IMG/VR virus record: IMGVR_UViG_3300006153_000003
DNA from: a virus
Lineage: Duplodnaviria > Caudoviricetes
DNA: 64,000 nt
Reading direction: 5' to 3' (one strand)
The notes under the pieces are model-generated. The model made no database searches and was not told where the DNA came from. It saw only the letters and a list, made by a program, of their open reading frames with translations. This document shows, piece after piece, positions 9,575-58,284 of this stretch. A program made the translations under genes and the position numbers. How positions within the stretch are numbered: position 1 is the first letter of the stretch; each line of letters opens with the position of its first letter.

Positions 9575-10780
9575 TTAATCTCCACCTGCCTTAAAATTAT
9601 ATATCGGCTTTATAATTCTGTCAATCTCAACAGTATCATCAATATTACCCACAATATCATCCATACCTTTATAAGCCATTGGACATTCATCTAAAGTATC
9701 ACGATTTACAGATGTTGTATAGATACCTTCCATTTGCTTTTTAAACTCTGAAACTGTAAATGAGGATTTAGCAGCAGATCGACTCATTAGTCTTCCAGCA
9801 CCATGAGGTGCCGATTGATTCCACTCATCATTACCTTTTCCAATACAAATCAAAGAACCATCTCTCATATTGATAGGAATAAGCAACTTTTCTCCTTTCT
9901 TTGCAGATACAGCCCCTTTTCTTAAAATCATTGCCTCTGTATCTATATAGTTATGAATTGTTGTAAACTGATCCACAATATGCAGTTTCATTCCTTTTAC
10001 TATTTCATCCATCATTGCCTGACGGTTTAGTTCTGCATATTTTTGAATAATCTTCATATCATGAATGTACTGTATGAACAATCCATCTGATACATATGCC
10101 AATTGCTTGGGGATGTTGGTTCTCTTTGTGTTTTTCAATGCTGCAATACTTTTCTGAATTTCTTTCTGTTTTCCCTGTGCTTTTAAATCCATAATTAAAG
10201 CATCAATATCTTTTTGCGCAGATCCATTTAATTCCTTATAACCTTCTTCTTGATAATAATTTGCTACTTCCAACCCCAAATGACGGCTACCTGAATGTAC
10301 CACAATATAAATATTACCTTCATCATCTTTGTTGGCTTCTATAAAATGATTACCTCCACCTAACGTTCCCAGGCTTTTCTCTGCCCTTCTCTTATCTATC
10401 TTTTTATAGCAATATAGCTCTTCCAAATTAATGTCTTTGAAGTATCTATGTGTCTTTTCTCTTATATTGAATCCAGATGGAATCTTTTCATAGATTAGTT
10501 TATCAAGTTTTTCCAATTCTATATGCTTTTCTTTAACTTCTATAACCTCCATGCCACATCCGATATCAACTCCTACCAAATTCGGAACAATCTTATTTGT
10601 AATGGTCATAGTTGTTCCAATCGTGCATCCGGCACCAGCATGGATATCTGGCATTAGTCTAATTTTGCTATCAGATACAAATTCTTGATTAAGCAAAAGT
10701 AAAACCTGAGATATAGAAGCTTCATCTACAATATCTGTAAAAATTTTTGCTTCATTATATTTGCCTTTTAACTCTATCAT
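9575..10780 (-). CDS. rtcB: RtcB RNA 2',3'-cyclic-phosphate/5'-OH ligase
   Basis: MPDIHAG, VGVDIGCG, LGTLGGGNHFIE, HSGSR, HNY, RKGA, SAPHGAGR motifs. Confidence 0.95.
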   Translation of the reverse strand: MIELKGKYNEAKIFTDIVDEASISQVLLLLNQEFVSDSKIRLMPDIHAGAGCTIGTTMTITNKIVPNLVGVDIGCGMEVIEVKEKHIELEKLDKLIYEKIPSGFNIREKTHRYFKDINLEELYCYKKIDKRRAEKSLGTLGGGNHFIEANKDDEGNIYIVVHSGSRHLGLEVANYYQEEGYKELNGSAQKDIDALIMDLKAQGKQKEIQKSIAALKNTKRTNIPKQLAYVSDGLFIQYIHDMKIIQKYAELNRQAMMDEIVKGMKLHIVDQFTTIHNYIDTEAMILRKGAVSAKKGEKLLIPINMRDGSLICIGKGNDEWNQSAPHGAGRLMSRSAAKSSFTVSEFKKQMEGIYTTSVNRDTLDECPMAYKGMDDIVGNIDDTVEIDRIIKPIYNFKAGGD

Positions 10781-36918: not shown

Positions 36919-37019
36919 TCTAAAAACCTCTCTTTCTTCCTACTACAATATATTTATGGTTAATCTCCCTTACAGCCAGTAAGGAATTACCCATCTTGTT
37001 GCTTTAGCTGTTAGAATGT

Positions 37020-37200
37020 AGAGAGCAATCGGTATATCGGATTCCTCCTTGGACTTCGCGTCCGTTAAATAGTCTGATAACCAGCTCCTCATTCGCAGCA
37101 TTCGTTTTATGCAGGTTGAACCGCCCACAAAGGTGCGTCCGCGTCACACCACAGTAGATTGAATCGGCAATGAGTAAAACTGGTCCTTACCATTGCTTAC
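37020..37200 (+). ncRNA. Putative IS110 bridge RNA (left-end non-coding region)
   Basis: Internal-loop stem TATCGGA/TCTGATA containing TAAATAG, complementary to the right flank CTATTTA; TGCAGG and ACAG match the donor junction. Confidence 0.55.
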
Positions 37201-37222
37201 AATAGAAGGAGTGACATAATAT

Positions 37223-38440
37223 ATGAATATGAACGCTATCGGTATTGATGTTTCCAAACGTAAAAGCATGGTTTCCATCCTCCGCCCAGGCGGTGAAGTC
37301 GTGGCCAAACCTTTTGAAGTATCTCATTTATCCAAGGATCTCCGATCATTGATTCATCGGATCAGAGCCCTTGATGGAGAATCTCGTATCGTCATGGAGT
37401 GTACCGGACATTACTATGAGACCATTGCCCATGAGCTTGTCTCTGCCGGTCTGTTTGTCAGCGCTGTAAATCCACAGCTTATACGTCATTATCAGGACGA
37501 AGACAACTCCCTGCGGAAAGTAAAGTCCGACAAAGCAGATTCCCTTAAAATCGCACGCTATACACTTGACAGATGGTCAAAATTGAAACAATATGGTCTT
37601 ATGGATGAATTACGCAATCAATTAAAGACCATGAACCGCCAGTTTGGCTTCTACATGAAGCACAAGACTGCCATGAAAAACAATCTGATCGGCCTTCTTG
37701 ACCAAACTTATCCCGGTGTAAACACCTATTTTGACAGCCCTGCCCGCGAAGACGGAAGCCAGAAATGGGTTGACTTTGCGGACTGCTACTGGCATGCAGA
37801 CTGTGTCCGTAAGATGTCTGCGGACGCTTTTGTTGACCACTATCAAAAGTGGTGTCACCGCAAGAAGTACAACTTCAGCAAAACAAAAGCTGAAGAAATC
37901 TATGAAACAGCCAAGGAACTGGTTTCTGTACTTCCAAAAGATGTCTTTACCAAACGTATCATCAAACAGGCGGTTGAGCAGTTAAATACTGCATCCCGAA
38001 CTGTTGAACAGCTCCGTTCTCTAATGAACGAAACCGCAGCCAAGCTTCCAGAATACTCTGTCGTTATGGCGATGAAAGGCGTAGGCCCCTCCCTGGGTCC
38101 ACAGCTAATAGCAGAAATCGGAGATGTGGCACGCTTTACCCATCGGAACGCCATTACCGCATTTGCTGGTGTTGACCCAGGTGTAAATGAATCCGGGGAT
38201 TACTCTCAAAAAAGTGTCCATGCATCAAAACATGGTTCCCCCGCGCTCCGTAAGACCCTATTTCAGGTCATGGACGTTCTAATTAAGACCAAGCCACAAG
38301 ATGACCCCGTGTATTTGTTCATGGACAAGAAACGTGCGCAAGGCAAGGCTTACTATGTCTACATGACAGCCGGGGCAAATAAGTTTCTCCGGATTTATTA
38401 CGGAAGAGTCAAAGAATATTTGGCTTCCCTTCCACAATAG
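37223..38440 (+). CDS. IS110 DEDD recombinase/transposase
   Basis: IGIDVSK, MECTGHY, KSDKADS, AFAGVDP...ESG motifs. Confidence 0.95.
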   Translation: MNMNAIGIDVSKRKSMVSILRPGGEVVAKPFEVSHLSKDLRSLIHRIRALDGESRIVMECTGHYYETIAHELVSAGLFVSAVNPQLIRHYQDEDNSLRKVKSDKADSLKIARYTLDRWSKLKQYGLMDELRNQLKTMNRQFGFYMKHKTAMKNNLIGLLDQTYPGVNTYFDSPAREDGSQKWVDFADCYWHADCVRKMSADAFVDHYQKWCHRKKYNFSKTKAEEIYETAKELVSVLPKDVFTKRIIKQAVEQLNTASRTVEQLRSLMNETAAKLPEYSVVMAMKGVGPSLGPQLIAEIGDVARFTHRNAITAFAGVDPGVNESGDYSQKSVHASKHGSPALRKTLFQVMDVLIKTKPQDDPVYLFMDKKRAQGKAYYVYMTAGANKFLRIYYGRVKEYLASLPQ

Positions 38441-38568
38441 CAGAAATTACATAACTCAAGCAATTCACAAAACCAGCGTTCTACGGTGGTCTGGTTGTTG
38501 TACGCATTTTTCCTACATAAAACTTTTTCAAAAAATATTCAATTTTCTATTGACTTTTTATTTGCAGG

Positions 38569-38793
38569 CTATTTATAATGACAACTCGTGCCATCTTCAA
38601 AATATAGTGTCAATCCATCTTCCGCTTCCGCATAGATTACTTTCTCCAAGTCTACAGAATCCACCTTCTTCGGATCCGTGTATGCGTGCCTTGCAAATGC
38701 AATCTTTCCAGCATCCAATACAATCAACCCCGCCAACAATGCCAATACTATTCTTTTCTTCATTCTCTTCACTTCCTTCCTTGATTTTTCCAT
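38569..38793 (-). CDS. Small exported protein
   Basis: MKKRIVLALLAGLIVL signal-like segment. Confidence 0.65.
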   Translation of the reverse strand: MEKSRKEVKRMKKRIVLALLAGLIVLDAGKIAFARHAYTDPKKVDSVDLEKVIYAEAEDGLTLYFEDGTSCHYK

Positions 38794-39471: not shown

Positions 39472-40200
39472 AATTGTGATCTCCCTTCTACTTTCTTAAT
39501 TTTTCCATCTTTTCAACAAAAAGACCAATATCTTTTTAGGGATATCAATCTTAAAATCTTTGAAATCTTAAATTTACTTAATATTCCATCTGCTCAGAAT
39601 AAAGATGTGAATACTCCTCACACTCTTTTCTTTTTGGACATCTGTTGCAATCAGCTTCATACTGACTACAGACTTTTTCTAAAATCTTTTCTAATTCTTC
39701 TAATCTTGTCATTATATTGTCCTCCTGTATAATTTATATTTATATTTTCTATAAAGAAAAAAGTCCCACACTTTTTTAGGAATATGAGACTTATTTTATT
39801 ATCTCCGTGATGCTATCTTACGATAGTAGCGCATGACGCCGTGTCGTGTGATTCTCCAATCTTTTTTATATCACAGGGATTTACGGACTCCCTAACGGTC
39901 TTTATTTTTATCCTGATGGCTTTTACTGTACTTTCCTTGAATTTCCACACCGTCTGACCATTCCAGCATTTAAATTCTAACGCGCTTTTCCATTGCGTGT
40001 ACAATCTGTTTTTAATGGCAGATGTACAAGCTGCCACAATGCCGGCACAATTATTATAGTGCATTGCCGATCTTGAGCACTATATATTACTTCGCGTTGA
40101 CATCACATTCCTTTTTATAAAGCAATTGACCGCTTTTATAAGTGTTTCCGTCCTCTTATTTAAAAAGGGCTTGCCACTTGACAAGTCCTGATTTTTTTCC

Positions 40201-41037
40201 TTATTTTACAAGGTATTCGATTGCAAGTTTAGAGATCACTTCATAAAACCGTGTGAAATCATATGTAGTTTTCCCTTCTTTATCTCTCTTGCGCTGAATC
40301 AACGTCTTCAGTGTACGCCCTTCATACCTGATTTCATTGCTTTTACCAATTCTTGAAAATCTAACATTCAGAGAACGTACATATAAATTGTGTATATACG
40401 CTAAATCTGTCTTATTAAATTTCATATTGATCTTTTTTGTCATATCTGTCTCAATTGGAAGTGAAAACAGAGACTTTATAATTTTTCCAATCTCCGCAGC
40501 TGAGAAAGAATAATCATTCCGTTGATTTTCACCGTCAACTAAACATCCCATCTCATCAATGTCACGGTCTTCCAATTGATGAATGCGTTCCATTGCTTCA
40601 TACAGTTGCACGTTTTCAATCCTATTCATAACCACATATTTATAAAGCTTAGAATTTTCCTGACATGCTGTAAGTCTCAAAACATTTCTAACGGCATATT
40701 CATCATTCTTTACATATTCATTATGAGATTCTGCGATATGATTGACTGTATATTCCCATCTCGGCTTTAATGCTTGCATTGTCTTAAAGTTATCCTTAAT
40801 TTCTTCCTCAAGCTTTTCGATCTTCCTTTTGATTCCATTTATTTCATCCTCAGATAAAGTTTCATCCTGTAAAGATTTAGTCAGAGATGCTACTTTTTCA
40901 TTCAAAAGTGTGTTTGTCATGTCCAGTCCTTCATAGCGTACTGCTGCTGAAACCAGATCAATTGACTTACAACTAACGATTTCTTCACGGACGCACGCCT
41001 TAATATTATCTGCTACTTTAACATATGTAAATAACAT
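40201..41037 (-). CDS. Hypothetical protein, first large gene after the leader
   Basis: 278-aa ORF with RBS. Confidence 0.8.
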   Translation of the reverse strand: MLFTYVKVADNIKACVREEIVSCKSIDLVSAAVRYEGLDMTNTLLNEKVASLTKSLQDETLSEDEINGIKRKIEKLEEEIKDNFKTMQALKPRWEYTVNHIAESHNEYVKNDEYAVRNVLRLTACQENSKLYKYVVMNRIENVQLYEAMERIHQLEDRDIDEMGCLVDGENQRNDYSFSAAEIGKIIKSLFSLPIETDMTKKINMKFNKTDLAYIHNLYVRSLNVRFSRIGKSNEIRYEGRTLKTLIQRKRDKEGKTTYDFTRFYEVISKLAIEYLVK

Positions 41038-41444
41038 AATTACACCGCCTTTTCTATGCTAAATCTATGTGAACATGTTTCTATTTTCTATATGTATTTT
41101 TATCCCGCTTTTTCTCAATTACAGTCTGTCAGTCTGTAAAATCAGCGGTGGGGTCGGGCAATTTCAGCCCTTAGACTTAACTCTAGCCTGTTAACTTTTC
41201 CCCTTTTCATATTCTTATGAGGATGGTTAGCAACTACCCAGTAACCTTTTCTGGCAGATTACGCGATTCTTAATTTCTAGCCGCCCCATATGGGCATTTT
41301 AGCATCAATTTCAGAAATCAACCCTTAAATTGTCAATGTACAGGGATTTTGATATCATCTATATTTCCGTCAAATTAAGACAGAACCATACCAAATTAAG
41401 GTAATTATATAAATGACTTTTTTCGGGAATTTCCATTGTCAGAA

Positions 41445-41551
41445 TTGACAATTCTTTAGAAATGCGTTATACTTCACTTGCTTAAGGTAGAAGAGTTAAC
41501 GCTTTTCTAGGAAATTTCCCTATCTTCTTTGGAAGATGGGGATTTTTCTTT
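41445..41551 (+). ncRNA. Putative ~70-nt antisense sRNA with its promoter and terminator
   Basis: TTGACA-17-TATACT; terminator TCCCTATCTTC...GAAGATGGGGA plus T-tract. Confidence 0.5.
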
Positions 41552-41558
41552 CTAATCC

Positions 41559-41747
41559 TCAATCCTCCATACCTTTAGATGTTACCGTGTATCTGGTTTC
41601 AACCTTAACGTCTACTTTCCCATCAACATAGGCTTGCAACAATGCTTCAGCCACGTCGCTATATTTCAACTTTTCAGCTTTGCATTTATCTCTAAAGATA
41701 CGTTGTAAGGATTCGTCAATCTGAATCGACATTGCTTTTCTTGCCAT
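41559..41747 (-). CDS. Ribbon-helix-helix regulator
   Basis: KAMSIQIDESL...YSDVAEALLQAYV; AAGGAGG RBS. Confidence 0.75.
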   Translation of the reverse strand: MARKAMSIQIDESLQRIFRDKCKAEKLKYSDVAEALLQAYVDGKVDVKVETRYTVTSKGMED

Positions 41748-41839
41748 TCCTGTATATCCTCCTTACACAATACACAGTATCACTGTTTTAGTGATTTGTC
41801 AATCACTATTTTAATGATTTTTGTAAAAGTTTTTCCGTC

Positions 41840-42760
41840 CTCAAATAAACCGACTTCTTCGCCGATGTATAACTTTTCGCTGCCATCACAATCTTTTTTA
41901 GAGTCCAATTGACCGGACTTTCCCTATAATTTATAGCAATTAGTTTCTGAGCACGTATTCATATACTCATACTTACGATACCGGCGCGGGAAGCCTTGCT
42001 ATCTGATATCATGTTTAGGGGTTCCTGGGGTAAAGTCTGACACTTTCGATGCTTTACCCCGTTTCGATTGTATACCGACATATACCGTTTCTGTCCTTCC
42101 ATGGCATTTTTTCAAATTCTCAGCTGGGTTTCGCCCGTAATGCCCTAAGTGCTTATACCTACTCAGATCATAAAGCTTGTAGAGATTTTTATGTCCCGTT
42201 TGAGCGGTGGTTATTATCCCGTCTTTATGTCCTTTTGCTTCCCTAGTGTTTGTTGCCTTTTGGAAGTATCACCTTTTAACTATCACTCTATCTTAGTTGC
42301 CGTGTCAACGGGGAAAGAATGGTCATTGTCAAAATGTGATTGACAGAAACGATATACACCGTATACGGTGGGACTCTGTCGTTATAGTCCGTTTACGTTG
42401 CTTTTTACGGAATGCAATAACCATCGACTTGTTGACTGGTTTACCGCTCATTTTAACGACTTTAGCGAGACGCATGTTTGTCGACTATTGGGTTAACGTT
42501 GTGACCGCTCTAATGCGCTTATGCGGTGGCTTTTTAGCTTATTTACCGCCTCTCAAATATCACTATTGACTTTTCACTACTTGCCAAAAGTGACACGGCA
42601 CTAATGACTTTTTCGCAAGTCTCAATATTATGTTGAGGATTTTTGTACCTTTTTAAAAAGAACGCTGTCAATATATGCACTTATTACATTTTAGGCGATA
42701 TATGCACTTATTACCATATAGGCAGCCCTCACGCCTTCATCTGTAGCCCTCATGACGATA
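41840..42760. ncRNA. Large structured non-coding region
   Basis: No credible ORF, raised GC, many hairpins and three crossing long-range helices. Confidence 0.45.
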
Positions 42761-42821
42761 TTAAAAAGGTGTAAAGCCCTTAACAACTGAATAAAGACTT
42801 TACACCTTAACTTGATGTAGG

Positions 42822-42974
42822 TTATTCTGTTTTGTCAGAATTGCTGCTACTTGTCATTCCCTTGTCAATACGTTTAATACCGTTTTTTATAACCTCTTTT
42901 GCTTTCTCTGTATTGTCAGTTTCAAGTAGAGCTAATATAGAATCTAATAATATACATAGCTCTTGATTATTCAT
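42822..42974 (-). CDS. 50-aa protein MNNQELCILLDSILALLETDNTEKAKEVIKNGIKRIDKGMTSSSNSDKTE
   Basis: AAGGTGG RBS; upstream TTTACA...TATAAT; flanked by an inverted repeat. Confidence 0.6.
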   Translation of the reverse strand: MNNQELCILLDSILALLETDNTEKAKEVIKNGIKRIDKGMTSSSNSDKTE

Positions 42975-43314
42975 ATCTTCACCACCTTTTTATAAGTAAG
43001 CGCCGTTTACTTTGGTACTTTTATTATATCAATCGGTGAATGTGGTGTAAAGCCTTTATTCAATTGTCAAGGTGCTTTAGGTTATTCGACTGGTAAGCTC
43101 ATCCTATCTAACTTTTTGCTGATTACTTACCAGTGATAAGGGGCTCTGCCGGAAACGTGCTAGGCGCCGGTCTTCCTACCTTATGTAGCTTTCGGTCAGA
43201 CTTGTTAGGGGCTCAGGCTTTCAAGTGTCTGCCACTGTTTACCTATCGTTTAACCTTTATCCCTCGGTGATGTCGGTTTGTGTTGCTTTACCGTGTTCCC
43301 CTTGGGATGGTTAT

Positions 43315-43412
43315 ACTATATCATGGCTAAACTCATTTTTCAAGTCTTTTTTATGGGTTTAGCCATGTTTGTTTATTATTACTAATATACATATTAAAAT
43401 GAGTTTAGTCAT
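43315..43412 (-). promoter_or_regulatory. Probable main leftward promoter with three operator copies
   Basis: TTGAAA-17-TATAGT; ATGRGTTTAGYCAT at 43323 (inverted), 43353 and 43399. Confidence 0.7.
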
Positions 43413-43531
43413 TTATATATTATGCACAATATCTAATAGTATTATTGACAAACCACATGATACAATGATACTGTTATATACTACCCTTTTGCCCAAAAAG
43501 AAGAATATTACATATAGGAAAGGGGAAAAAC

Positions 43532-43771
43532 ATGATGAACGAAATAGAAAAGAAAAAGAGAATAAAAGAACAAAATAGAAAGGCTGTCAAGAAATATAGA
43601 GAAAAAACAGTCAGCTTTGCCGTAAAATATAGTGCTGTTGATGCTGAGCAAGGAAAACGGTTAAAAGCTTATCTTGCCAATACCGGACAGAGTGCCAATG
43701 CATATATAAAAGAATTGATCAAGCGTGATTTAGATAGTAAAGGGATTGAATATACCACAAATGAGGAATAA
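43532..43771 (+). CDS. RHH-like DNA-binding protein
   Basis: KYREKTVSFAVK...SANAYIKELIKRDL. Confidence 0.75.
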   Translation: MMNEIEKKKRIKEQNRKAVKKYREKTVSFAVKYSAVDAEQGKRLKAYLANTGQSANAYIKELIKRDLDSKGIEYTTNEE

Positions 43772-43776
43772 AAATC

Positions 43777-44892
43777 ATGATAGACAAGTTTATAGATATA
43801 TTAGTCAAATATAAAAGTGAGAAATGGTGTCCTGATATTGCTTTTAATATTAATAATAATATACAAGATATAATATGCTATTTAAAGAATATAAAAAAGA
43901 ATTTATCTCACAAAATATTTGAAATTAATTTATCTGATAAAATATATGATGATAATATAATTATTGATATACAAAACGACATTAAAAGTATAAAAGAATT
44001 AATTAAACATTTTGAAAAACTGAAACAAAATATTATTGATATAACATCAAGAATAGAGCAAAAAGTAATATTTGATACACAAATATATTTATATGTTATT
44101 GATGATAATTTGTGTCCAGAATGCAATGTAAAATTATATCCTTTATACATCGATTACCAAAAAAATATAGACGGAAATATAGATAATTATGAGAGAATAG
44201 AAGGTTATGAATGTCAATGCTGTAAAAAAATATTTGCTATGCAATATGATATAAATGATATTGATTTTACTGATACAAATATTACATTAGACTATCGCTA
44301 TTTAAAAGATGAAAATCAACTAACTTTTAATGATGTTATAGTATTATCTAATCTCATATCATGTACTACTAAAGAACATAGTTTAAAGGATATAATAGCA
44401 CAGATACCCATAATTAGCGCGAATGGTAGTATTGATTTTATCAGACTTAATATATCGTATTGCAGTAATTGCAATAAGTATATTATGCTGAAAAATGATT
44501 TTAAAGAAATTGATGGAATTGTAGCTTGTAAGGTTATTGATAAAACTACTATACGGAATAGAAATGATAGTGATATCATTGAAATAAAACAATATGAATC
44601 TATATTGTATCAGTATGGATATAATGTAAAAGCTAAAGACAATTTAAGCGATAAACAGAGACATCTAATACTTGCTGCTGTGGTGGAGTCTGGTATATTG
44701 ACACGTGAACAAATATGCTCTCATTTAGATACTTTAATAGAGCGTGGAAGTAAAATAGAAAAGTGGAAAGACGCAACTAAAAAATGGAGACAAGATAGGC
44801 ATTATGTAAAGGGATATAATGTAAATAATTTACCTAAAATATTGATTGAAAAAGTGATATTAAAATATAGTCAAATGTCATTAAATATATAA
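43777..44892 (+). CDS. Hypothetical very AT-rich protein with CxxC pairs
   Basis: 371-aa ORF. Confidence 0.8.
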   Translation: MIDKFIDILVKYKSEKWCPDIAFNINNNIQDIICYLKNIKKNLSHKIFEINLSDKIYDDNIIIDIQNDIKSIKELIKHFEKLKQNIIDITSRIEQKVIFDTQIYLYVIDDNLCPECNVKLYPLYIDYQKNIDGNIDNYERIEGYECQCCKKIFAMQYDINDIDFTDTNITLDYRYLKDENQLTFNDVIVLSNLISCTTKEHSLKDIIAQIPIISANGSIDFIRLNISYCSNCNKYIMLKNDFKEIDGIVACKVIDKTTIRNRNDSDIIEIKQYESILYQYGYNVKAKDNLSDKQRHLILAAVVESGILTREQICSHLDTLIERGSKIEKWKDATKKWRQDRHYVKGYNVNNLPKILIEKVILKYSQMSLNI

Positions 44893-52818: not shown

Positions 52819-55560
52819 TTGTTAGACAAGCAATATAATATGTATTCTGTAGATACTGGACATTTTTATAGCAATCATGAAAAATACTTACACAATATGA
52901 ATTGTAAATATCGTAAAGAACGTAATTATGTTCTGAACAAATTACCGGAAATCGAAAAAAAATTAATGCAATACGGATATACAGAGGATGATCTTAAGAA
53001 TCTTAAAAATGAAAAGATTGAAAAAATTGATATTATTGAGTCTTCTTATGATATGATTTCTAAATATTTACATTGGGTAAGATTAATTAAGCACAAAAGA
53101 AAAAAAGCGAAAGAATCAAAAGAGGAATTGCTTACTCTTCTATCAAATAAAGTCATTCAAAATGAATTAACAGATGGCAAAGATCATATTCGGATAATAA
53201 AAGAAGATAGTATAAATGATACAAATATTATTTCCGTTTTTGATTCATCACTTAGCAGAATTATTGGCATCAAGCAAGATGAATTAACAGAAGCTTTAAT
53301 AGTAGTCCAAGTATATTATTTTGATGTATTCAAAGATATTTCATTCTATGGTTTTAAATACAAAGGTAAAAAATATAAATATTTTACTTCTTCTGCAGGA
53401 CAAATTCGAAAAAAGAAAGCTGTATTTATTAAGGAATCTGTGTGGAATAAGATTGAAAAAAGTATCATGTGTGGTTTGACAATAGGAAAAATCAATTCAA
53501 AAGGAGGGAATAATGTTAATAAGCATTTAGCTTATATGGCTCTAACAAATTCCGCGACTGATGAGTGGAAAGAATTTAATATTGATAAGTCTATTGTTAT
53601 TGATGATTTTGAGACTAACGTATATGGTACTTTTGACTTCGTAGATGATGTTGACTATTCGATTACAAGAAAAACAGATTATGTTCCAATACCTCATACT
53701 GACGGAGCTGGCATGATACTACCCTCAATTTCTAAAAAAAATTTTATGTTTCGTGCCCCTTGGATTAAAGGATTGTTAGGTGTATTTGATTTTAAGAAGT
53801 TTGTAGAGATAAATAACTACTCTCCTATTATTACAGATATTTACGGAAAAAAATATGATATTATTAAAGAAGATATCCAAATTATCTTTACAAAATCCCA
53901 GTTTAAAATGTGGAAGTATTACGATTCCTGGGATGAGTACAAGGTATATTTTAAAAAGTATCAATGTGAAGCTGGTAAATGTAATATTGAAGAAGATAGA
54001 ATTAAGAATGCAAAGATAAATTATCAGATGCTTCAAACACTAACAAACATTACAGATGAGGAAATTGATTTGCTTACTCAGAAATCGTCTGAACGAATTA
54101 GTAATATCTGTAGTTCAAAAGAAACTATGATGGATATTCTTGGTATCACACCCTATAATACAAATATGTCTTCATTTCAAAAAGCGGTAAAATTGTATCC
54201 TGCCTTATTGAATGATACATATGCAAAAGATGTTATTCGAGAAGTGAAAAACAGTCTTCTTAAAAAGTACCGTAGTGGAAAACTTGAAGTAACTGGGAAA
54301 TATACATTTTTACTCCCTGATTTTTATGCAGCTTGTGAATATTGGTTTGGACACATTGATGAACCAAAAGGATTATTAGATGATAAAGAAGTATTTTGTT
54401 GGCTATTTAAACAGTATGATAAATTGGATTGTTTGAGAAGCCCACACTTATATAAAGAACATGCTATTAGATTCAACGTTGCTAATAAGGGTTATGGTGA
54501 ACGAGCAAAGCAAATAAAGGAATGGTTCATTACTAATGGAATTTATGCTAGTACCCATGATTTAATAAGTAAAATACTTATGTATGATGTTGATGGAGAT
54601 AAAAGTTTAGTAGTTGCTGACAAAACCTTTGTTAGAATTGCAGAGCGTAATATGAATGGCATTGTTCCGTTATACTACAATATGCGCAAGGCAGAACCAA
54701 CAGAATTAAACAATAAAAATATTTACGCTGGACTTAACGCTGCTTTTACCGGAGGAAACATCGGTATTTACAGTAATAATATATCCAAAATTTGGAATGA
54801 CGATGTATTTATAAATGGATCAGAAGAAGATAAACAAAAGGCTATTGATTGTGTAAAAAGATTATGTTGTCAAAATAACTTTGTGATTGATTATGCTAAA
54901 ACCTTATATAAGCCAGAATTTCCTCGTGATATTAATGAACAAATTTCTAAATTCACAAATGGAAAATTGCCTGCGTTCTTTAGATTTGCAAAAGATAAAG
55001 AAAAATCCCAGGTAAAAGATCGAAATCAGAGTTTTGTAAATAAAATTTATGATAGAATACCAAATAAACCAATTAATACTAGGGGTATGCACCTTGGTAA
55101 TATTGATTATAAAATGCTGATGGAGAATCCAGAAATTATTTGTACTAAAGAAGTATCTAATTTATATGATATGTTAAATAAACAATATAGATATATGATT
55201 AATATGAAGGATGAATACATCGATAACTTAAGATATGTAGCATGTAAAATCAGAGAAGAATTTGACGAGTTTGGATATTCTAGTGAAACTATTTCGGATA
55301 TGCTTGTTGAATACTTATATGGTAAAGGGAAACGCTACAAACAATTGTTATGGTTCTGTTATGGACAATATGTTGTGAATAATTTAGAAAAGAATATTAC
55401 AGGTAAAAAAGTCAAAATAATTCAATGTATTGATTGTGGTGAATGGATTGAAGTTGATTCAAAAGACAACAAAACTTGTAGATGTGAATTGTGTAAAACA
55501 ATTTATAAAAAGAACTATCATAAAGAATATATGAGAAATAAAAGAAGTTTGTTAAGTTAG
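52819..55560 (+). CDS. YonO-like single-subunit (two-barrel) DNA-dependent RNA polymerase
   Basis: HTDGAG, FRAPWIKG, LRSPH and catalytic DVDGD motifs; C-terminal Zn ribbon; 913 aa. Confidence 0.85.
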   Translation: MLDKQYNMYSVDTGHFYSNHEKYLHNMNCKYRKERNYVLNKLPEIEKKLMQYGYTEDDLKNLKNEKIEKIDIIESSYDMISKYLHWVRLIKHKRKKAKESKEELLTLLSNKVIQNELTDGKDHIRIIKEDSINDTNIISVFDSSLSRIIGIKQDELTEALIVVQVYYFDVFKDISFYGFKYKGKKYKYFTSSAGQIRKKKAVFIKESVWNKIEKSIMCGLTIGKINSKGGNNVNKHLAYMALTNSATDEWKEFNIDKSIVIDDFETNVYGTFDFVDDVDYSITRKTDYVPIPHTDGAGMILPSISKKNFMFRAPWIKGLLGVFDFKKFVEINNYSPIITDIYGKKYDIIKEDIQIIFTKSQFKMWKYYDSWDEYKVYFKKYQCEAGKCNIEEDRIKNAKINYQMLQTLTNITDEEIDLLTQKSSERISNICSSKETMMDILGITPYNTNMSSFQKAVKLYPALLNDTYAKDVIREVKNSLLKKYRSGKLEVTGKYTFLLPDFYAACEYWFGHIDEPKGLLDDKEVFCWLFKQYDKLDCLRSPHLYKEHAIRFNVANKGYGERAKQIKEWFITNGIYASTHDLISKILMYDVDGDKSLVVADKTFVRIAERNMNGIVPLYYNMRKAEPTELNNKNIYAGLNAAFTGGNIGIYSNNISKIWNDDVFINGSEEDKQKAIDCVKRLCCQNNFVIDYAKTLYKPEFPRDINEQISKFTNGKLPAFFRFAKDKEKSQVKDRNQSFVNKIYDRIPNKPINTRGMHLGNIDYKMLMENPEIICTKEVSNLYDMLNKQYRYMINMKDEYIDNLRYVACKIREEFDEFGYSSETISDMLVEYLYGKGKRYKQLLWFCYGQYVVNNLEKNITGKKVKIIQCIDCGEWIEVDSKDNKTCRCELCKTIYKKNYHKEYMRNKRSLLS

Positions 55561-56130: not shown

Positions 56131-56758
56131 AATGAATATTTTCTCGTATTTTCAAATAACTCAGTGAAGAATGGTTTAGTCACCATGCTGAGAATATACG
56201 GATGCTGCCAAATTAATTCTTGGGATACTTAGAATGGATTTGGTCCGAAATATTGCGAAATATATTAGGATAAAAGATAAAATCTCAAAAGCAAGTATAT
56301 GTACTGAGAGTAAACGTAGTAAAATGCTGTCGTCTGGTCGCTGATATAATAGAGAGCTGCGCTGCAGTGCACAACCCTGATGCCTATAGCCTGATAACCT
56401 ATAGGAATTGAGTAAGTAAGGGAAATATCACACCAAGTCAGTTTGTCGTGAGGATTCAGAAATGAATCGTATAAGACCAGTTGGACGAACAAGTAGCCTA
56501 AGACAAGCACATTAATGAATCTGTATTTGTTATATTAGCAAGTAAAACAAATATTATAAAAGAAAACATACTTCTGAATGATAGGTGAACGTTATTCGTA
56601 ACCAATCGAATACACACGGAGACAGATGTATTTCTGTTGGGTAAGAAGTTTATGGTCGACGGGTCATAGACTCAGACTTATCTAGGTGTTTGCATAATAT
56701 TATTGCGTTTACGGAGGCAACCTGAAGGGGTATTTGAAAATACGAGAAAGTATTCATT
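56131..56758 (+). ncRNA. Large (~630 nt) structured ncRNA, ROOL/GOLLD-class candidate
   Basis: 28-bp closing stem 56131-56158/56731-56758 with one G-U; many internal helices; directly upstream of tRNAs. Confidence 0.75.
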
Positions 56759-56824
56759 CTATTTTTCATTTTTTCTCATATGGGTGGCGGTGCTACTGTT
56801 CTGGTAGTATCGTCATCTGTTCTT

Positions 56825-56897
56825 GTGTCTATAACTCAATTGGTAGAGTAATCGGCTTTTAACCGATAGGTTTTGGGTTCAAGTCCCAATAGGCACA
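56825..56897 (+). tRNA. tRNA-Lys(TTT)
   Basis: Cloverleaf; anticodon arm ATCGG-CTTTTAA-CCGAT; TTCAAGT T-loop. Confidence 0.9.
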
Positions 56898-56899
56898 TT

Positions 56900-56979
56900 G
56901 CTGGCGGGTGGAACGGATATATAAACCATACCAGGCTCATACCCTGCGTGATACTCAGTTCGACTCTGGGGCTTCAGCA
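56900..56979 (+). tRNA. Atypical tRNA-Met/Ile2(CAT)-like gene
   Basis: CAGG-CTCATAC-CCTG anticodon arm, TTCGACT T-loop; enlarged D-loop and imperfect acceptor stem. Confidence 0.55.
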
Positions 56980-57178
56980 ATTTTGTGAAGAGTTACAATT
57001 CTGTAGCTCTTTTTTTGTTATTTCATATAGGGTGATTACTACCCTGTCGTTTTGTGAAATTTTTATGCTTCATAAAATTTCTCCTTACTTGGGGTGATTG
57101 TTGCAGCAGTCACTCTATATGAAATAACAAAAGCGTTATCTGCAAATAACGATTAATAAAGGAGAGACAAAAAGTTAT

Positions 57179-58045
57179 ATGGTTAAAAAATTTACGAAAC
57201 GACAACTACTAGTTCAATGTGGATTTACCGCAGAAGATACTCAAATTATTCTTGATTACCAAAAGAAACTTCCAATATTATTAGAAGATAATGATACTTG
57301 GATAAACGCAAAAGATTTATGGGAACAATTGAAAGTAAAAGACAAATATACAGATTGGATTAAAACCCAGATAAAAACTTTTGAATTAATAGAAAATATT
57401 AGTTATATGACGAATTCGGTTCAAACCGAAATCGCAAATAATGGTTCAAAAAAAATAACAGAATATCAGATTAAGGTAGAAACCGCTAAAAGTATTACTT
57501 TGGTTATAGGATATAAAGGTGGTAATATATCTAAAGAATTAAAGGAAAATAGCAAACTCGCTCATAAGTATTTTATTCTTATGGAAAAAGCAGTAAAAAG
57601 AAACATCGAATGGGAACTAATCCGTTATCCTCTCCGTGAAGGTTACAAGAAAATGCAGAACGCATTAAATCAATATATGAATCGTATAGTTCAGAGAAAT
57701 GCTGATGATTGGGATTATAGTATGGAGGCAGATGCACTTAATATAATTGCAACTGGTTTTCCTGCAAAAGAAATTAGATTGTTTGTTGGATGTAAAGATA
57801 ATATTACAAGAGATAGTTTGACAGCTACATATAATGAATATTTAATGAAACTCCAAGAATTAAATATTATATATCTTGGTATGAATATGAATCGCTATGA
57901 ACGCTATAAAATGCTTAAACAATCTTTTGATATTTTGTTTCCAAATGCAATACCAATTAAAGATGATATTGATATTAACAAGATTCAAGCATATAAACAG
58001 AAATTATTAGATGAAACAAAAGAGAAAGTTCAAAGGGCAGCTTAA
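57179..58045 (+). CDS. AntA/AntB-type antirepressor
   Basis: INAKDLWEQLKVKDKYTDWIK...KYFILMEK. Confidence 0.75.
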   Translation: MVKKFTKRQLLVQCGFTAEDTQIILDYQKKLPILLEDNDTWINAKDLWEQLKVKDKYTDWIKTQIKTFELIENISYMTNSVQTEIANNGSKKITEYQIKVETAKSITLVIGYKGGNISKELKENSKLAHKYFILMEKAVKRNIEWELIRYPLREGYKKMQNALNQYMNRIVQRNADDWDYSMEADALNIIATGFPAKEIRLFVGCKDNITRDSLTATYNEYLMKLQELNIIYLGMNMNRYERYKMLKQSFDILFPNAIPIKDDIDINKIQAYKQKLLDETKEKVQRAA

Positions 58046-58069
58046 TTACTGCCCTACTTTATATACTAT

Positions 58070-58142
58070 CGCAGATTATGTTGGAGTGGTTCCACACATG
58101 GCTCATAACCATGGTACACGAGTTCGAATCTCGTATCTGCAA
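58070..58142 (+). tRNA. tRNA-Met(CAT), initiator-like
   Basis: C1:A72 mismatch; CATGG-CTCATAA-CCATG; TTCGAAT T-loop. Confidence 0.8.
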
Positions 58143-58211
58143 TTGTTTTGTCTGTTTAGTATAAACAGTCCTCCGTAGCCAGGCTCTTCGTTAACAGTCC
58201 GATATTATCTT

Positions 58212-58284
58212 TGGCATATAGCTCAGTTGGTAGAGCACTTGTCTGTTAAACAAGATGTCACAGGTTCGATCCCTGTTGTGCCAG
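58212..58284 (+). tRNA. tRNA-Asn(GTT)
   Basis: Canonical cloverleaf, CTTGT-CTGTTAA-ACAAG, discriminator G. Confidence 0.92.

Follow-up and report, generated by a model that had tools for sequence, protein, structure and literature searches.

The stretch of DNA analysed here, referred to as the window, spans 64,000 nucleotides (nt) and corresponds to bases 59064-123063, on the reverse strand, of the 130.9-kb IMG/VR record IMGVR_UViG_3300006153_000003, which is estimated to be 69% complete. The source is a tailed phage with a genome of 131 kb or more: beyond the window the record encodes a terminase large subunit, a portal protein, a DNA polymerase, a NAD-ligase and NrdD, and the window itself harbours genes for a YonO-type single-subunit RNA polymerase (52819-55560), RtcB, a sliding clamp and an integrase. 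A ROOL RNA is located at 56136-56750 (286.7 bits; the positive control for the Rfam searches) and is followed by tRNA genes, one of them 75 nt downstream. Genes run leftward to the left of ∼43.4 kb and rightward to the right, and the cumulative GC skew has its turning point at the divergence of the two arms, near 42-43 kb. The head of the leftward arm is occupied by a 2.3-kb stretch (41040-43310), which is the subject of this report and which contains, between 42640 and 41940 on the minus strand, a conserved structured RNA of ∼700 nt.

A preliminary description, made from the sequence alone, had portrayed these 2.3 kb as one mostly non-coding, highly structured leader of raised GC. The individual features listed there were all recovered in place, and the stretch is essentially non-coding: no open reading frame (ORF) exceeds 90 amino acids (aa), and the minus strand accommodates two short ORFs with ribosome-binding sites (RBS), of 50 aa and 62 aa, both of which are kept in relatives. 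The GC content is only mildly elevated, at 0.36-0.385 against ∼0.32 in the surroundings. The picture of a single leader does not hold: the stretch is a composite early-control region whose fold is exceptional only in the middle, where the segment 42640-41900 has a minus-strand z of -3.1 and a plus-strand z of -1.2.

The RNA is made up of a 5′ domain (42638-42549), a variable linker (42548-42400), a core (42390-42070) that includes a branched arm (42340-42268), and three 3′ hairpins (42060-42027, 42012-41975 and 41969-41948) that together occupy 42060-41948. Its main features are the following.

41940..42640, minus strand: conserved structured RNA, ∼700 nt, without an Rfam family (homology, RNAalifold, G-U versus A-C counts)
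42583..42608, minus strand: hairpin with apical loop CCGUGU, 5′ arm of the probable kissing loop (helix 3 arm 42591-42600); 6/8 stem pairs covary
42371..42390, minus strand: hairpin directly 5′ of the core; 5/5 pairs changed on both sides, 92% of alignment cells paired in 16 sequences
42342..42366, minus strand: helix 1, 5′ strand (the listed helix plus an extension), closing the ∼300-nt core
42297..42308, minus strand: pseudoknot 3′ arm GACACGGC, at the tip of the first branch inside helix 1
42254..42266, minus strand: second long-range helix, 5′ strand, stacked inside helix 1; partner 42096-42106
42188..42216, minus strand: motif UAAUAACCACC-N8-GGGACAUAAA, the anchor pattern, which contains the 3′ arm of the listed helix 2; also invariant in relatives reached via the 278-aa protein
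42096..42106, minus strand: second long-range helix, 3′ strand; partner 42254-42266
42070..42095, minus strand: helix 1, 3′ strand; partner of 42342..42366

Helix 1 is a long-range helix of ∼25 bp that closes a multi-branch core. The portion noticed originally (42081-42095/42342-42356) has 14 of 15 Watson-Crick pairs, the mismatch being a G-U pair on the minus strand. The helix is maintained in relatives, with 91% of cells pairing, and covariation, the absence of which had been named beforehand as refuting, is present as compensatory changes at five pairs among seven relatives. A duplex search recovered the helix in 17/17 family members, in quite different sequences: the strands read GGUGUAUAUCGUUUCUGUC/GACAGAAACGGUAUAUGUC here, UAUUGUACCG/CGGUACAAUA in relative L068 and UUGUAUAAUGUUU/AAACAUUAUACAA in L070. 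In L043 and L045 a 1-nt deletion on one strand is accompanied by a matching, compensatory deletion on the other. Within helix 1 stacks a further long-range helix, not mentioned in the preliminary description; 88-98% of its cells pair and 9/9 pairs are changed on both sides in 16 sequences.

Three mutually crossing helices had been proposed originally. Helix 3 (42298-42307/42591-42600), with its 10/10 pairs confirmed, joins the loop CCGUGU of the 5′ hairpin to GACACGG at the tip of the first core branch; 77% of cells pair and the 7-bp core is invariant in the seven-sequence alignment. For the pseudoknot 3′ arm, the expected loop is the best upstream partner in 11/17 sequences. Helix 3 crosses helix 1, and therefore the RNA is pseudoknotted, probably through a kissing loop. 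Helix 2 (42201-42208/42443-42450) was dropped: its pairing is perfect here (8/8), but only 41.5% of cells pair among relatives and its 5′ arm falls within the variable linker. Of the three helices, only two are upheld.

Besides the helices, the RNA displays near-invariant unpaired motifs, namely UAAUAACCACC...GGGACAUAAA, GGGCAUUAC and UUGAAAAA. The invariance of UAAUAACCACC and GGGACAUAAA is partly circular, because some of the relatives were gathered by an exact-match pattern. All 17 collected members share a helix 1 that closes a core with UAAUAACCACC-N(5-16)-GGGACAUAAA, together with the inner long-range helix.

The structure was analysed with MAFFT, RNAalifold, duplexfold and pair counts. 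For seven full-length members, RNAalifold returned 113 pairs, 64 of them with compensatory changes. A wider set of 16 sequences, drawn from all subgroups and aligned with MAFFT blind to structure, was scored over the 5′ hairpin and the inner long-range helix: 94.8% of cells pair compared with 65.8% in shuffles (0/500 reached the observed value), and the covariation score is 0.809 against 0.214 for shuffles and at most 0.163 when the partners are slid. The evidence of G-U pairs for the transcribed strand, described earlier as mixed, turned out to be one-sided: 80 G-U cells against 16 A-C cells favour the minus strand, and the alifold energy is -83 kcal/mol for the sense strand and -67 kcal/mol for the antisense strand. 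These counts and the poorer antisense fold indicate that the strand that folds runs in the same direction as the early genes. A hidden coding region is disfavoured because one-base indels occur inside conserved blocks. Taken together, 42640-41940 on the minus strand very probably represents a real structured RNA family. The large pseudoknotted non-coding RNA that had been suspected has thus been borne out as a conserved, covarying element with one crossing helix and ∼20 relatives, confined to 0.7 of the 2.3 kb.

Relatives were sought both through a neighbouring protein and through the RNA itself. The protein is encoded by the first long gene of the leftward arm.

40201..41037, minus strand: 278-aa gene without assigned function, the anchor for finding relatives

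A blastn comparison with 72,556 plasmids and 50,697 phage records gave no match to this DNA, and an IMG/VR search via the 278-aa protein and a 371-aa protein yielded no relatives. In metagenomes, homologues of the 278-aa protein form a graded series from 98% to 28% identity. Their contigs share a common layout: an ORF of ∼50 aa, a 1.2-1.4-kb gap, an ORF of ∼60 aa, a 0.5-kb gap and a long gene. In relatives with a 54-56% identical protein, the gap is ∼60% identical to the window; conservation of the non-coding DNA therefore matches that of the coding DNA. A scan of the collections with the pattern TAATAACCACC-N(5-16)-GGGACATAAA matched 6 viral, 11 metagenomic and 2 genomic stretches, most of which were confirmed by nhmmer as homologues of a shorter core. 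One carrier, again nhmmer-confirmed, is a prophage of the cultured Mediterraneibacter hominis NSJ-55, which makes the RNA open to bench study. The family is rare: when one mismatch was allowed, the pattern occurred in 3/401 genomes of the M. hominis family, of which nhmmer upheld just M. hominis itself and left the other two without confirmation. In IMG/VR, one further true viral member was reached with a looser pattern.

The RNA is an optional component of these loci. It is absent from L039-41, where the 278-aa homologue is 68% identical, the cassette of the 50-aa ORF is kept and small genes replace the RNA. It was likewise not found within 10 kb of the DUF3825 gene in 37 related phage loci that were reached through this gene. 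Five of the RNA-less loci (L002, L006, L033, L034 and L036) display a different ORF-free gap of ∼1 kb directly upstream of DUF3825, at ∼8.5-9.8 kb in the locus. Where present, the RNA is always co-directional with the downstream genes; it follows the 50-aa cassette in the window and precedes it in L053 and L058. In both near-complete viral records that bear the RNA, a YonO homologue is encoded on the opposite, diverging arm at a distance of 10-14 kb, and the window shows the same arrangement.

Searches of Rfam 15 over 40500-44000, at the gathering threshold and at E <= 10, gave no match over the RNA, the best sub-threshold matches having E values of 0.19 or worse and lying outside the RNA or on the wrong strand. 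Nine relatives searched at the gathering threshold were equally without a match over the RNA. No tRNA-like element was found, and no description of the family was encountered in the literature searched. Pistol ribozymes reach 67 and 66 bits, against a gathering score of 34.5, in two RNA-bearing early arms, L043:7401-7470 (+) and L075:211-273 (-). The former is a metagenomic relative; the latter is the M. hominis prophage, in which the ribozyme lies ∼1.1 kb downstream of the RNA. Their presence suggests that long early transcripts are cut into pieces.

The genes that accompany the RNA in relatives encode ArdA, ArdC-like proteins, HicB antitoxins and Dam/DUF4942 methyltransferases. The early arms of L039, L040, L043, L045, L050 and L061, 3′ of the RNA or of the 278-aa gene, contain ArdA, an ArdC-like zincin, HicB-type antitoxins, YafQ/ParE toxins, LPD11 and Dam/DUF4942. 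A set of the ArdA/ArdC/HicB/Dam type is typical of plasmid leading regions and is found here in a tailed phage.

Upstream of the RNA lies a group of regulatory parts, listed in the direction of leftward transcription.

43315..43343, minus strand: promoter-like P1, TTGAAA-17-TATAGT with TG, the outermost leftward one, beside the divergent rightward genes (10/12 consensus matches, extended -10; consensus only)
43090..43312, minus strand: phage-specific, GC-richer segment between P1 and P2, missing from L047 (98% identical 278-aa protein) and from all compared loci
43043..43080, minus strand: candidate antiterminator arm, 38 nt, which includes the first "boxA-like" 12-mer (43064-43075), overlaps the P2 -35 and pairs with the T1 5′ arm and loop (42807-42771)
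43023..43051, minus strand: promoter-like P2, TTTACA-17-TATAAT with TG, for the 50-aa ORF (11/12 consensus matches)
42822..42974, minus strand: 50-aa ORF with RBS, no Pfam match; ORFs of 49-63 aa at the same position in relatives
42760..42808, minus strand: predicted intrinsic terminator T1, a 17-bp stem and U-run
42642..42752, minus strand: repeat block with TGAGGGCT twice, a 17-bp repeat twice (42671-42687, 42698-42714) and TTGACA-18-TACAAA, by eye a candidate regulated promoter for the RNA

The duplex between the 38-nt arm and T1 has a predicted energy of -52.2 kcal/mol, compared with -21.7 for the T1 hairpin, and the arm-terminator pairing is kept with changed sequences in L047, L043, L045, L053 and L039. 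As the arm overlaps the -35 of P2, transcripts from P2 should lack the complete arm and stop at T1, and transcripts from upstream should pass. The position of the cassette on the other side of the RNA in L053 and L058 means that it behaves as a movable module. The two "boxA-like" 12-mers noticed earlier both read as written and share ACNTTGACAATT, of which the window holds two exact copies; they count only as resembling boxA, and the first is part of the T1 bypass arm. By eye, 43095-43262 is a GC-richer insertion of ∼200 nt relative to L045; Rfam gave no match in 43090-43312, and the fold of 43310-43056 is not significant (z = -1.07). The 17-bp direct repeat had been located correctly at 42671 and 42698. 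The repeats of the block are partly kept in L043, and its promoter is not conserved in L043, L045, L053 or L061.

What this RNA does can be approached from its distribution and surroundings. Tentatively, it is most likely an accessory early RNA product, possibly cut from the early transcript, that would bind a host or phage factor through its fold. This reading is drawn from the fact that the RNA is an optional module among counter-defence and host-takeover genes and is missing in close relatives. The host RNA polymerase would make the RNA early, either from its own repeat-flanked promoter or as part of upstream transcripts that pass T1 by means of the 38-nt bypass arm. The RNA might then be processed out of the early transcript and bind its partner early in infection, acting by shape and with the invariant unpaired nucleotides as the binding surface. 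Co-transcription followed by processing is plausible: Pistol ribozymes occur in the same arms (L043, L075), and the ROOL RNA of this phage abuts a tRNA gene.

The elaborate fold, the near-invariant unpaired motifs, the optional distribution, the neighbours and the Pistol ribozymes recall, by analogy, stand-alone ornate RNAs such as ROOL. Like ROOL, GOLLD and other large ornate RNAs (10.1101/2024.12.08.627333), the element extends over several hundred nucleotides with covarying helices and conserved unpaired motifs. RNAs of the ROOL/GOLLD type are borne by phages and prophages in Firmicutes and co-transcribed with their neighbours, and the window has its ROOL copy 14 kb away. Unlike them, the RNA described here lies in an early control region rather than beside tRNA genes, and it does not match their models.

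Several observations weigh against the accessory-product reading. The 3′ end of the RNA is without a strong terminator. In three distant groups (B, C and E), an RBS and an ORF follow within ∼20-60 nt of the RNA, an arrangement that fits a cis-acting leader equally well. Covariation in helix 3 is limited to one position, a U-A to C-G change seen by eye in L061 and group B (L071). The family is small, with RNA homologues amounting to ∼20 viral, metagenomic and prophage sequences. Finally, the mechanism is poorly specified beyond an accessory RNA with a binding partner, and the idea of counter-defence comes from the neighbourhood only.

The strongest competitor is the one put forward at the outset, a cis-acting processive antiterminator: the nascent RNA would bind its RNA polymerase and confer resistance to the intrinsic terminators of the early arm, as canT and conAn2 do. 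This proposal has lost ground and is now unlikely, although it retains appreciable weight. The early arm is long and one-directional, and the RNA sits in its 5′ portion, always oriented like the genes that follow; in several groups the next ORF is reached from the RNA without crossing a strong terminator; and minus-strand terminator-like sites are located downstream in the window at 40185, 39792, 38828, 35665 and 24878. Counted with a strict definition in a simple scan, however, terminators are not enriched: across 12 loci, the 6 kb that follow the RNA contain 16 sense and 13 antisense terminators, with none in L043, L045, L065 and L073, and the number per 8 kb is 2 in the RNA-less L039, L040 and L050 as opposed to 0-1 in the RNA-bearing L043 and L045. 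Moreover, close relatives live without the RNA. The T1 cassette lies 3′ of the RNA in L053, and in L058 by matching layout, and L053 keeps its private bypass arm; under antitermination this arm would be redundant, because the polymerase would already be terminator-proof. In our view an accessory RNA is the likelier reading, ahead of a device by which RNA polymerase would disregard terminators.

Comparison with the known antiterminators points in the same direction. canT is a cis-acting, orientation-specific processive antiterminator RNA of Tn916, 341-452 nt in size, within a 452-nt region between orf8 and xis (PMC11658703); the RNA described here is within its size range, as it is within that of conAn2 (260-600 bp, PMC8191782). 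Both are large RNAs carried by Firmicute mobile elements, and both precede, in matching orientation, a long operon with anti-restriction genes among its members, with a terminator that serves as an insulator nearby. The two differ in that this element is a phage and not a conjugative transposon, and terminator density is here unlinked to the RNA. No similarity to canT was detected: nhmmer --max with the family hidden Markov models against pCF10 (Tn925) gave no match in 41745-42204, where 0/8 tested motifs occur. canT is without a published covariation model for comparison.

The conAn system of pLS20 comprises the ConAn1 protein and the conAn2 RNA, which is poorly conserved, at 30-40% identity (PMC8191782). 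Again there are parallels: conAn2 is likewise large, belongs to a Gram-positive mobile element and lies close to the beginning of a very long operon, which has internal terminators. There are also differences. A six-frame search at E <= 1 of the 130.9-kb record, 69% complete by estimate, revealed no ConAn1 (PF17362), the protein that defines the system; conAn2 is directly 3′ of conAn1, whereas the RNA here is 3′ of a 50-aa ORF and a terminator; it possesses near-invariant motifs, unlike conAn2; and its host element is a tailed phage with terminase and portal, whereas conAn resides on a conjugative element.

HK022 putL/putR and the Bacillus subtilis EAR resemble the RNA in being RNA-only elements of early or operon leaders that act on the transcribing polymerase. 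The put RNAs, at ∼70 nt, consist of two stem-loops, and EAR, at ∼120 nt, contains a pseudoknot. Both are much smaller than conAn2 (PMC8191782). The RNA here is 5-10 times larger than put and EAR and has a different architecture, and it has no Rfam match at E <= 10, the presence of EAR among the Rfam models being unverified. A separate line concerned boxA. The invariant UUUGAAAAA resembles what we take to be the Firmicute rrn boxA; the idea was dropped, as that string occurs at control frequency in 13 Lachnospiraceae genomes and the rRNA leader of M. hominis is truncated.

Another kind of cis-acting leader is less probable still. The folded 5′ region would protect or process the early mRNA, as a block to 5′ exonucleases or an RNase entry site, or would tune translation of the next ORF. 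The short distance from RNA to RBS in groups B, C and E, the constant co-direction with downstream genes and the evidence of transcript processing provided by self-cleaving ribozymes in the arms of relatives would all suit such a role. It calls, however, for far less than 700 nt of RNA equipped with near-invariant unpaired motifs and a kissing loop; the downstream ORFs vary between groups, and 3′ of the core there is neither a terminator/antiterminator nor an RBS-masking platform.

An element acting as DNA, be it an origin of replication, an array of protein-binding sites, or a single-strand promoter or initiation site such as plasmid leading regions contain, is very improbable: the GC skew turn, the direct repeats that adjoin the RNA, the presence in the 2.3 kb of 4/9 window copies of TTGACAAT and the neighbouring ArdA/ArdC genes, which recall plasmid leading regions, would be in keeping with it, but the skew turn coincides with the switch in gene direction, many conserved G-U pairs, weak in DNA, would turn into A-C mismatches if the opposite strand were the folded one, and the element is a tailed phage with terminase and portal. 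Since the helix sequences change freely with pairing kept, no promoter hexamers or binding sites are conserved in the helices, and the single-strand promoter was rejected on this ground and on that of the tailed phage.

Returning to an RNA product, what had been read as one leader resolves into a separate RNA module with regulatory parts of ordinary kinds on both sides, among them a terminator-bypass cassette supported by covariation. Large, intricately folded non-coding RNAs are rare, and the known classes have each exposed new biology, such as ribozymes, RNA cages and RNA-guided enzymes. This one is located in the early control region of large phages of gut bacteria (Firmicutes), near counter-defence genes, where the first decisions of an infection fall. 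There is some chance, well short of an even one, that it represents a new class of large pseudoknotted phage RNA with a function of its own in a clade of large YonO-type gut phages, either a third, unrelated polymerase-reprogramming RNA beside canT and conAn2 or an RNA-only factor for counter-defence or host takeover derived from the early leftward transcripts.

Downstream of the RNA, the remainder of the 2.3 kb is composed of smaller parts.

41849..41866, minus strand: short hairpin and then UUUAUUUG, a weak terminator-like end 3′ of the RNA; covarying stems in L047, L043 and L045, absent in L053 and L058
41774..41807, minus strand: promoter TTGACA-17-TACTGT in the palindrome AGTGATTGACAAATCACT; TTGACA and neighbouring bases conserved in relatives
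41559..41747, minus strand: 62-aa ORF, ribbon-helix-helix-like by sequence pattern, no Pfam match; ORFs of 59-62 aa at the same position in relatives, and the frame aligns
41445..41552, plus strand: candidate antisense small RNA of ∼65-70 nt, with promoter TTGACA-17-TATACT (41445-41473; 11/12 matches) and terminator (41517-41542 plus T-run; 11-bp stem)
41038..41444, minus strand: second leader ahead of the 278-aa gene, with a CUUAAUUUG direct repeat, the second "boxA-like" motif (41329-41341) and a phage-specific part (41330-41115); z = -4.2, from mononucleotide shuffles only

The palindrome AGTGATTGACAAATCACT is a probable self-regulated operator, judging from its sequence. The plus-strand promoter and terminator at 41445-41552 are conserved in L047, L043 and L045; the RNA that they delimit would be complementary to the part of the leftward transcript that separates the 62-aa ORF from the second leader, and it recalls plasmid countertranscripts. 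The second "boxA-like" motif, ACAUUGACAAUU (41329-41341), is conserved in relatives and has no -10 at -35 distance. It was also considered as the bypass arm of another terminator and rejected, having no long complement; its sole complement is an upstream near-palindrome, AAUUGUCAAUUCUGACAAU (41437-41458). The region of this motif and the copies of TTGACAAT may be operator half-sites.

Two further observations concern the phage at large. It encodes the RtcB RNA ligase (window 9575-10780, minus strand), a CCA-adding enzyme (L085:4815-6167 = G000:C1:127814-129166, outside the window), three tRNAs and ROOL (window 56136-58284), a combined set of RNA-repair and tRNA functions like those deployed against anticodon nucleases. 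The leftward arm is interrupted at 37008-38570 by an insertion sequence of the IS110 family, with a DEDD transposase at 37223-38440 and a local GC content of 0.43-0.45.

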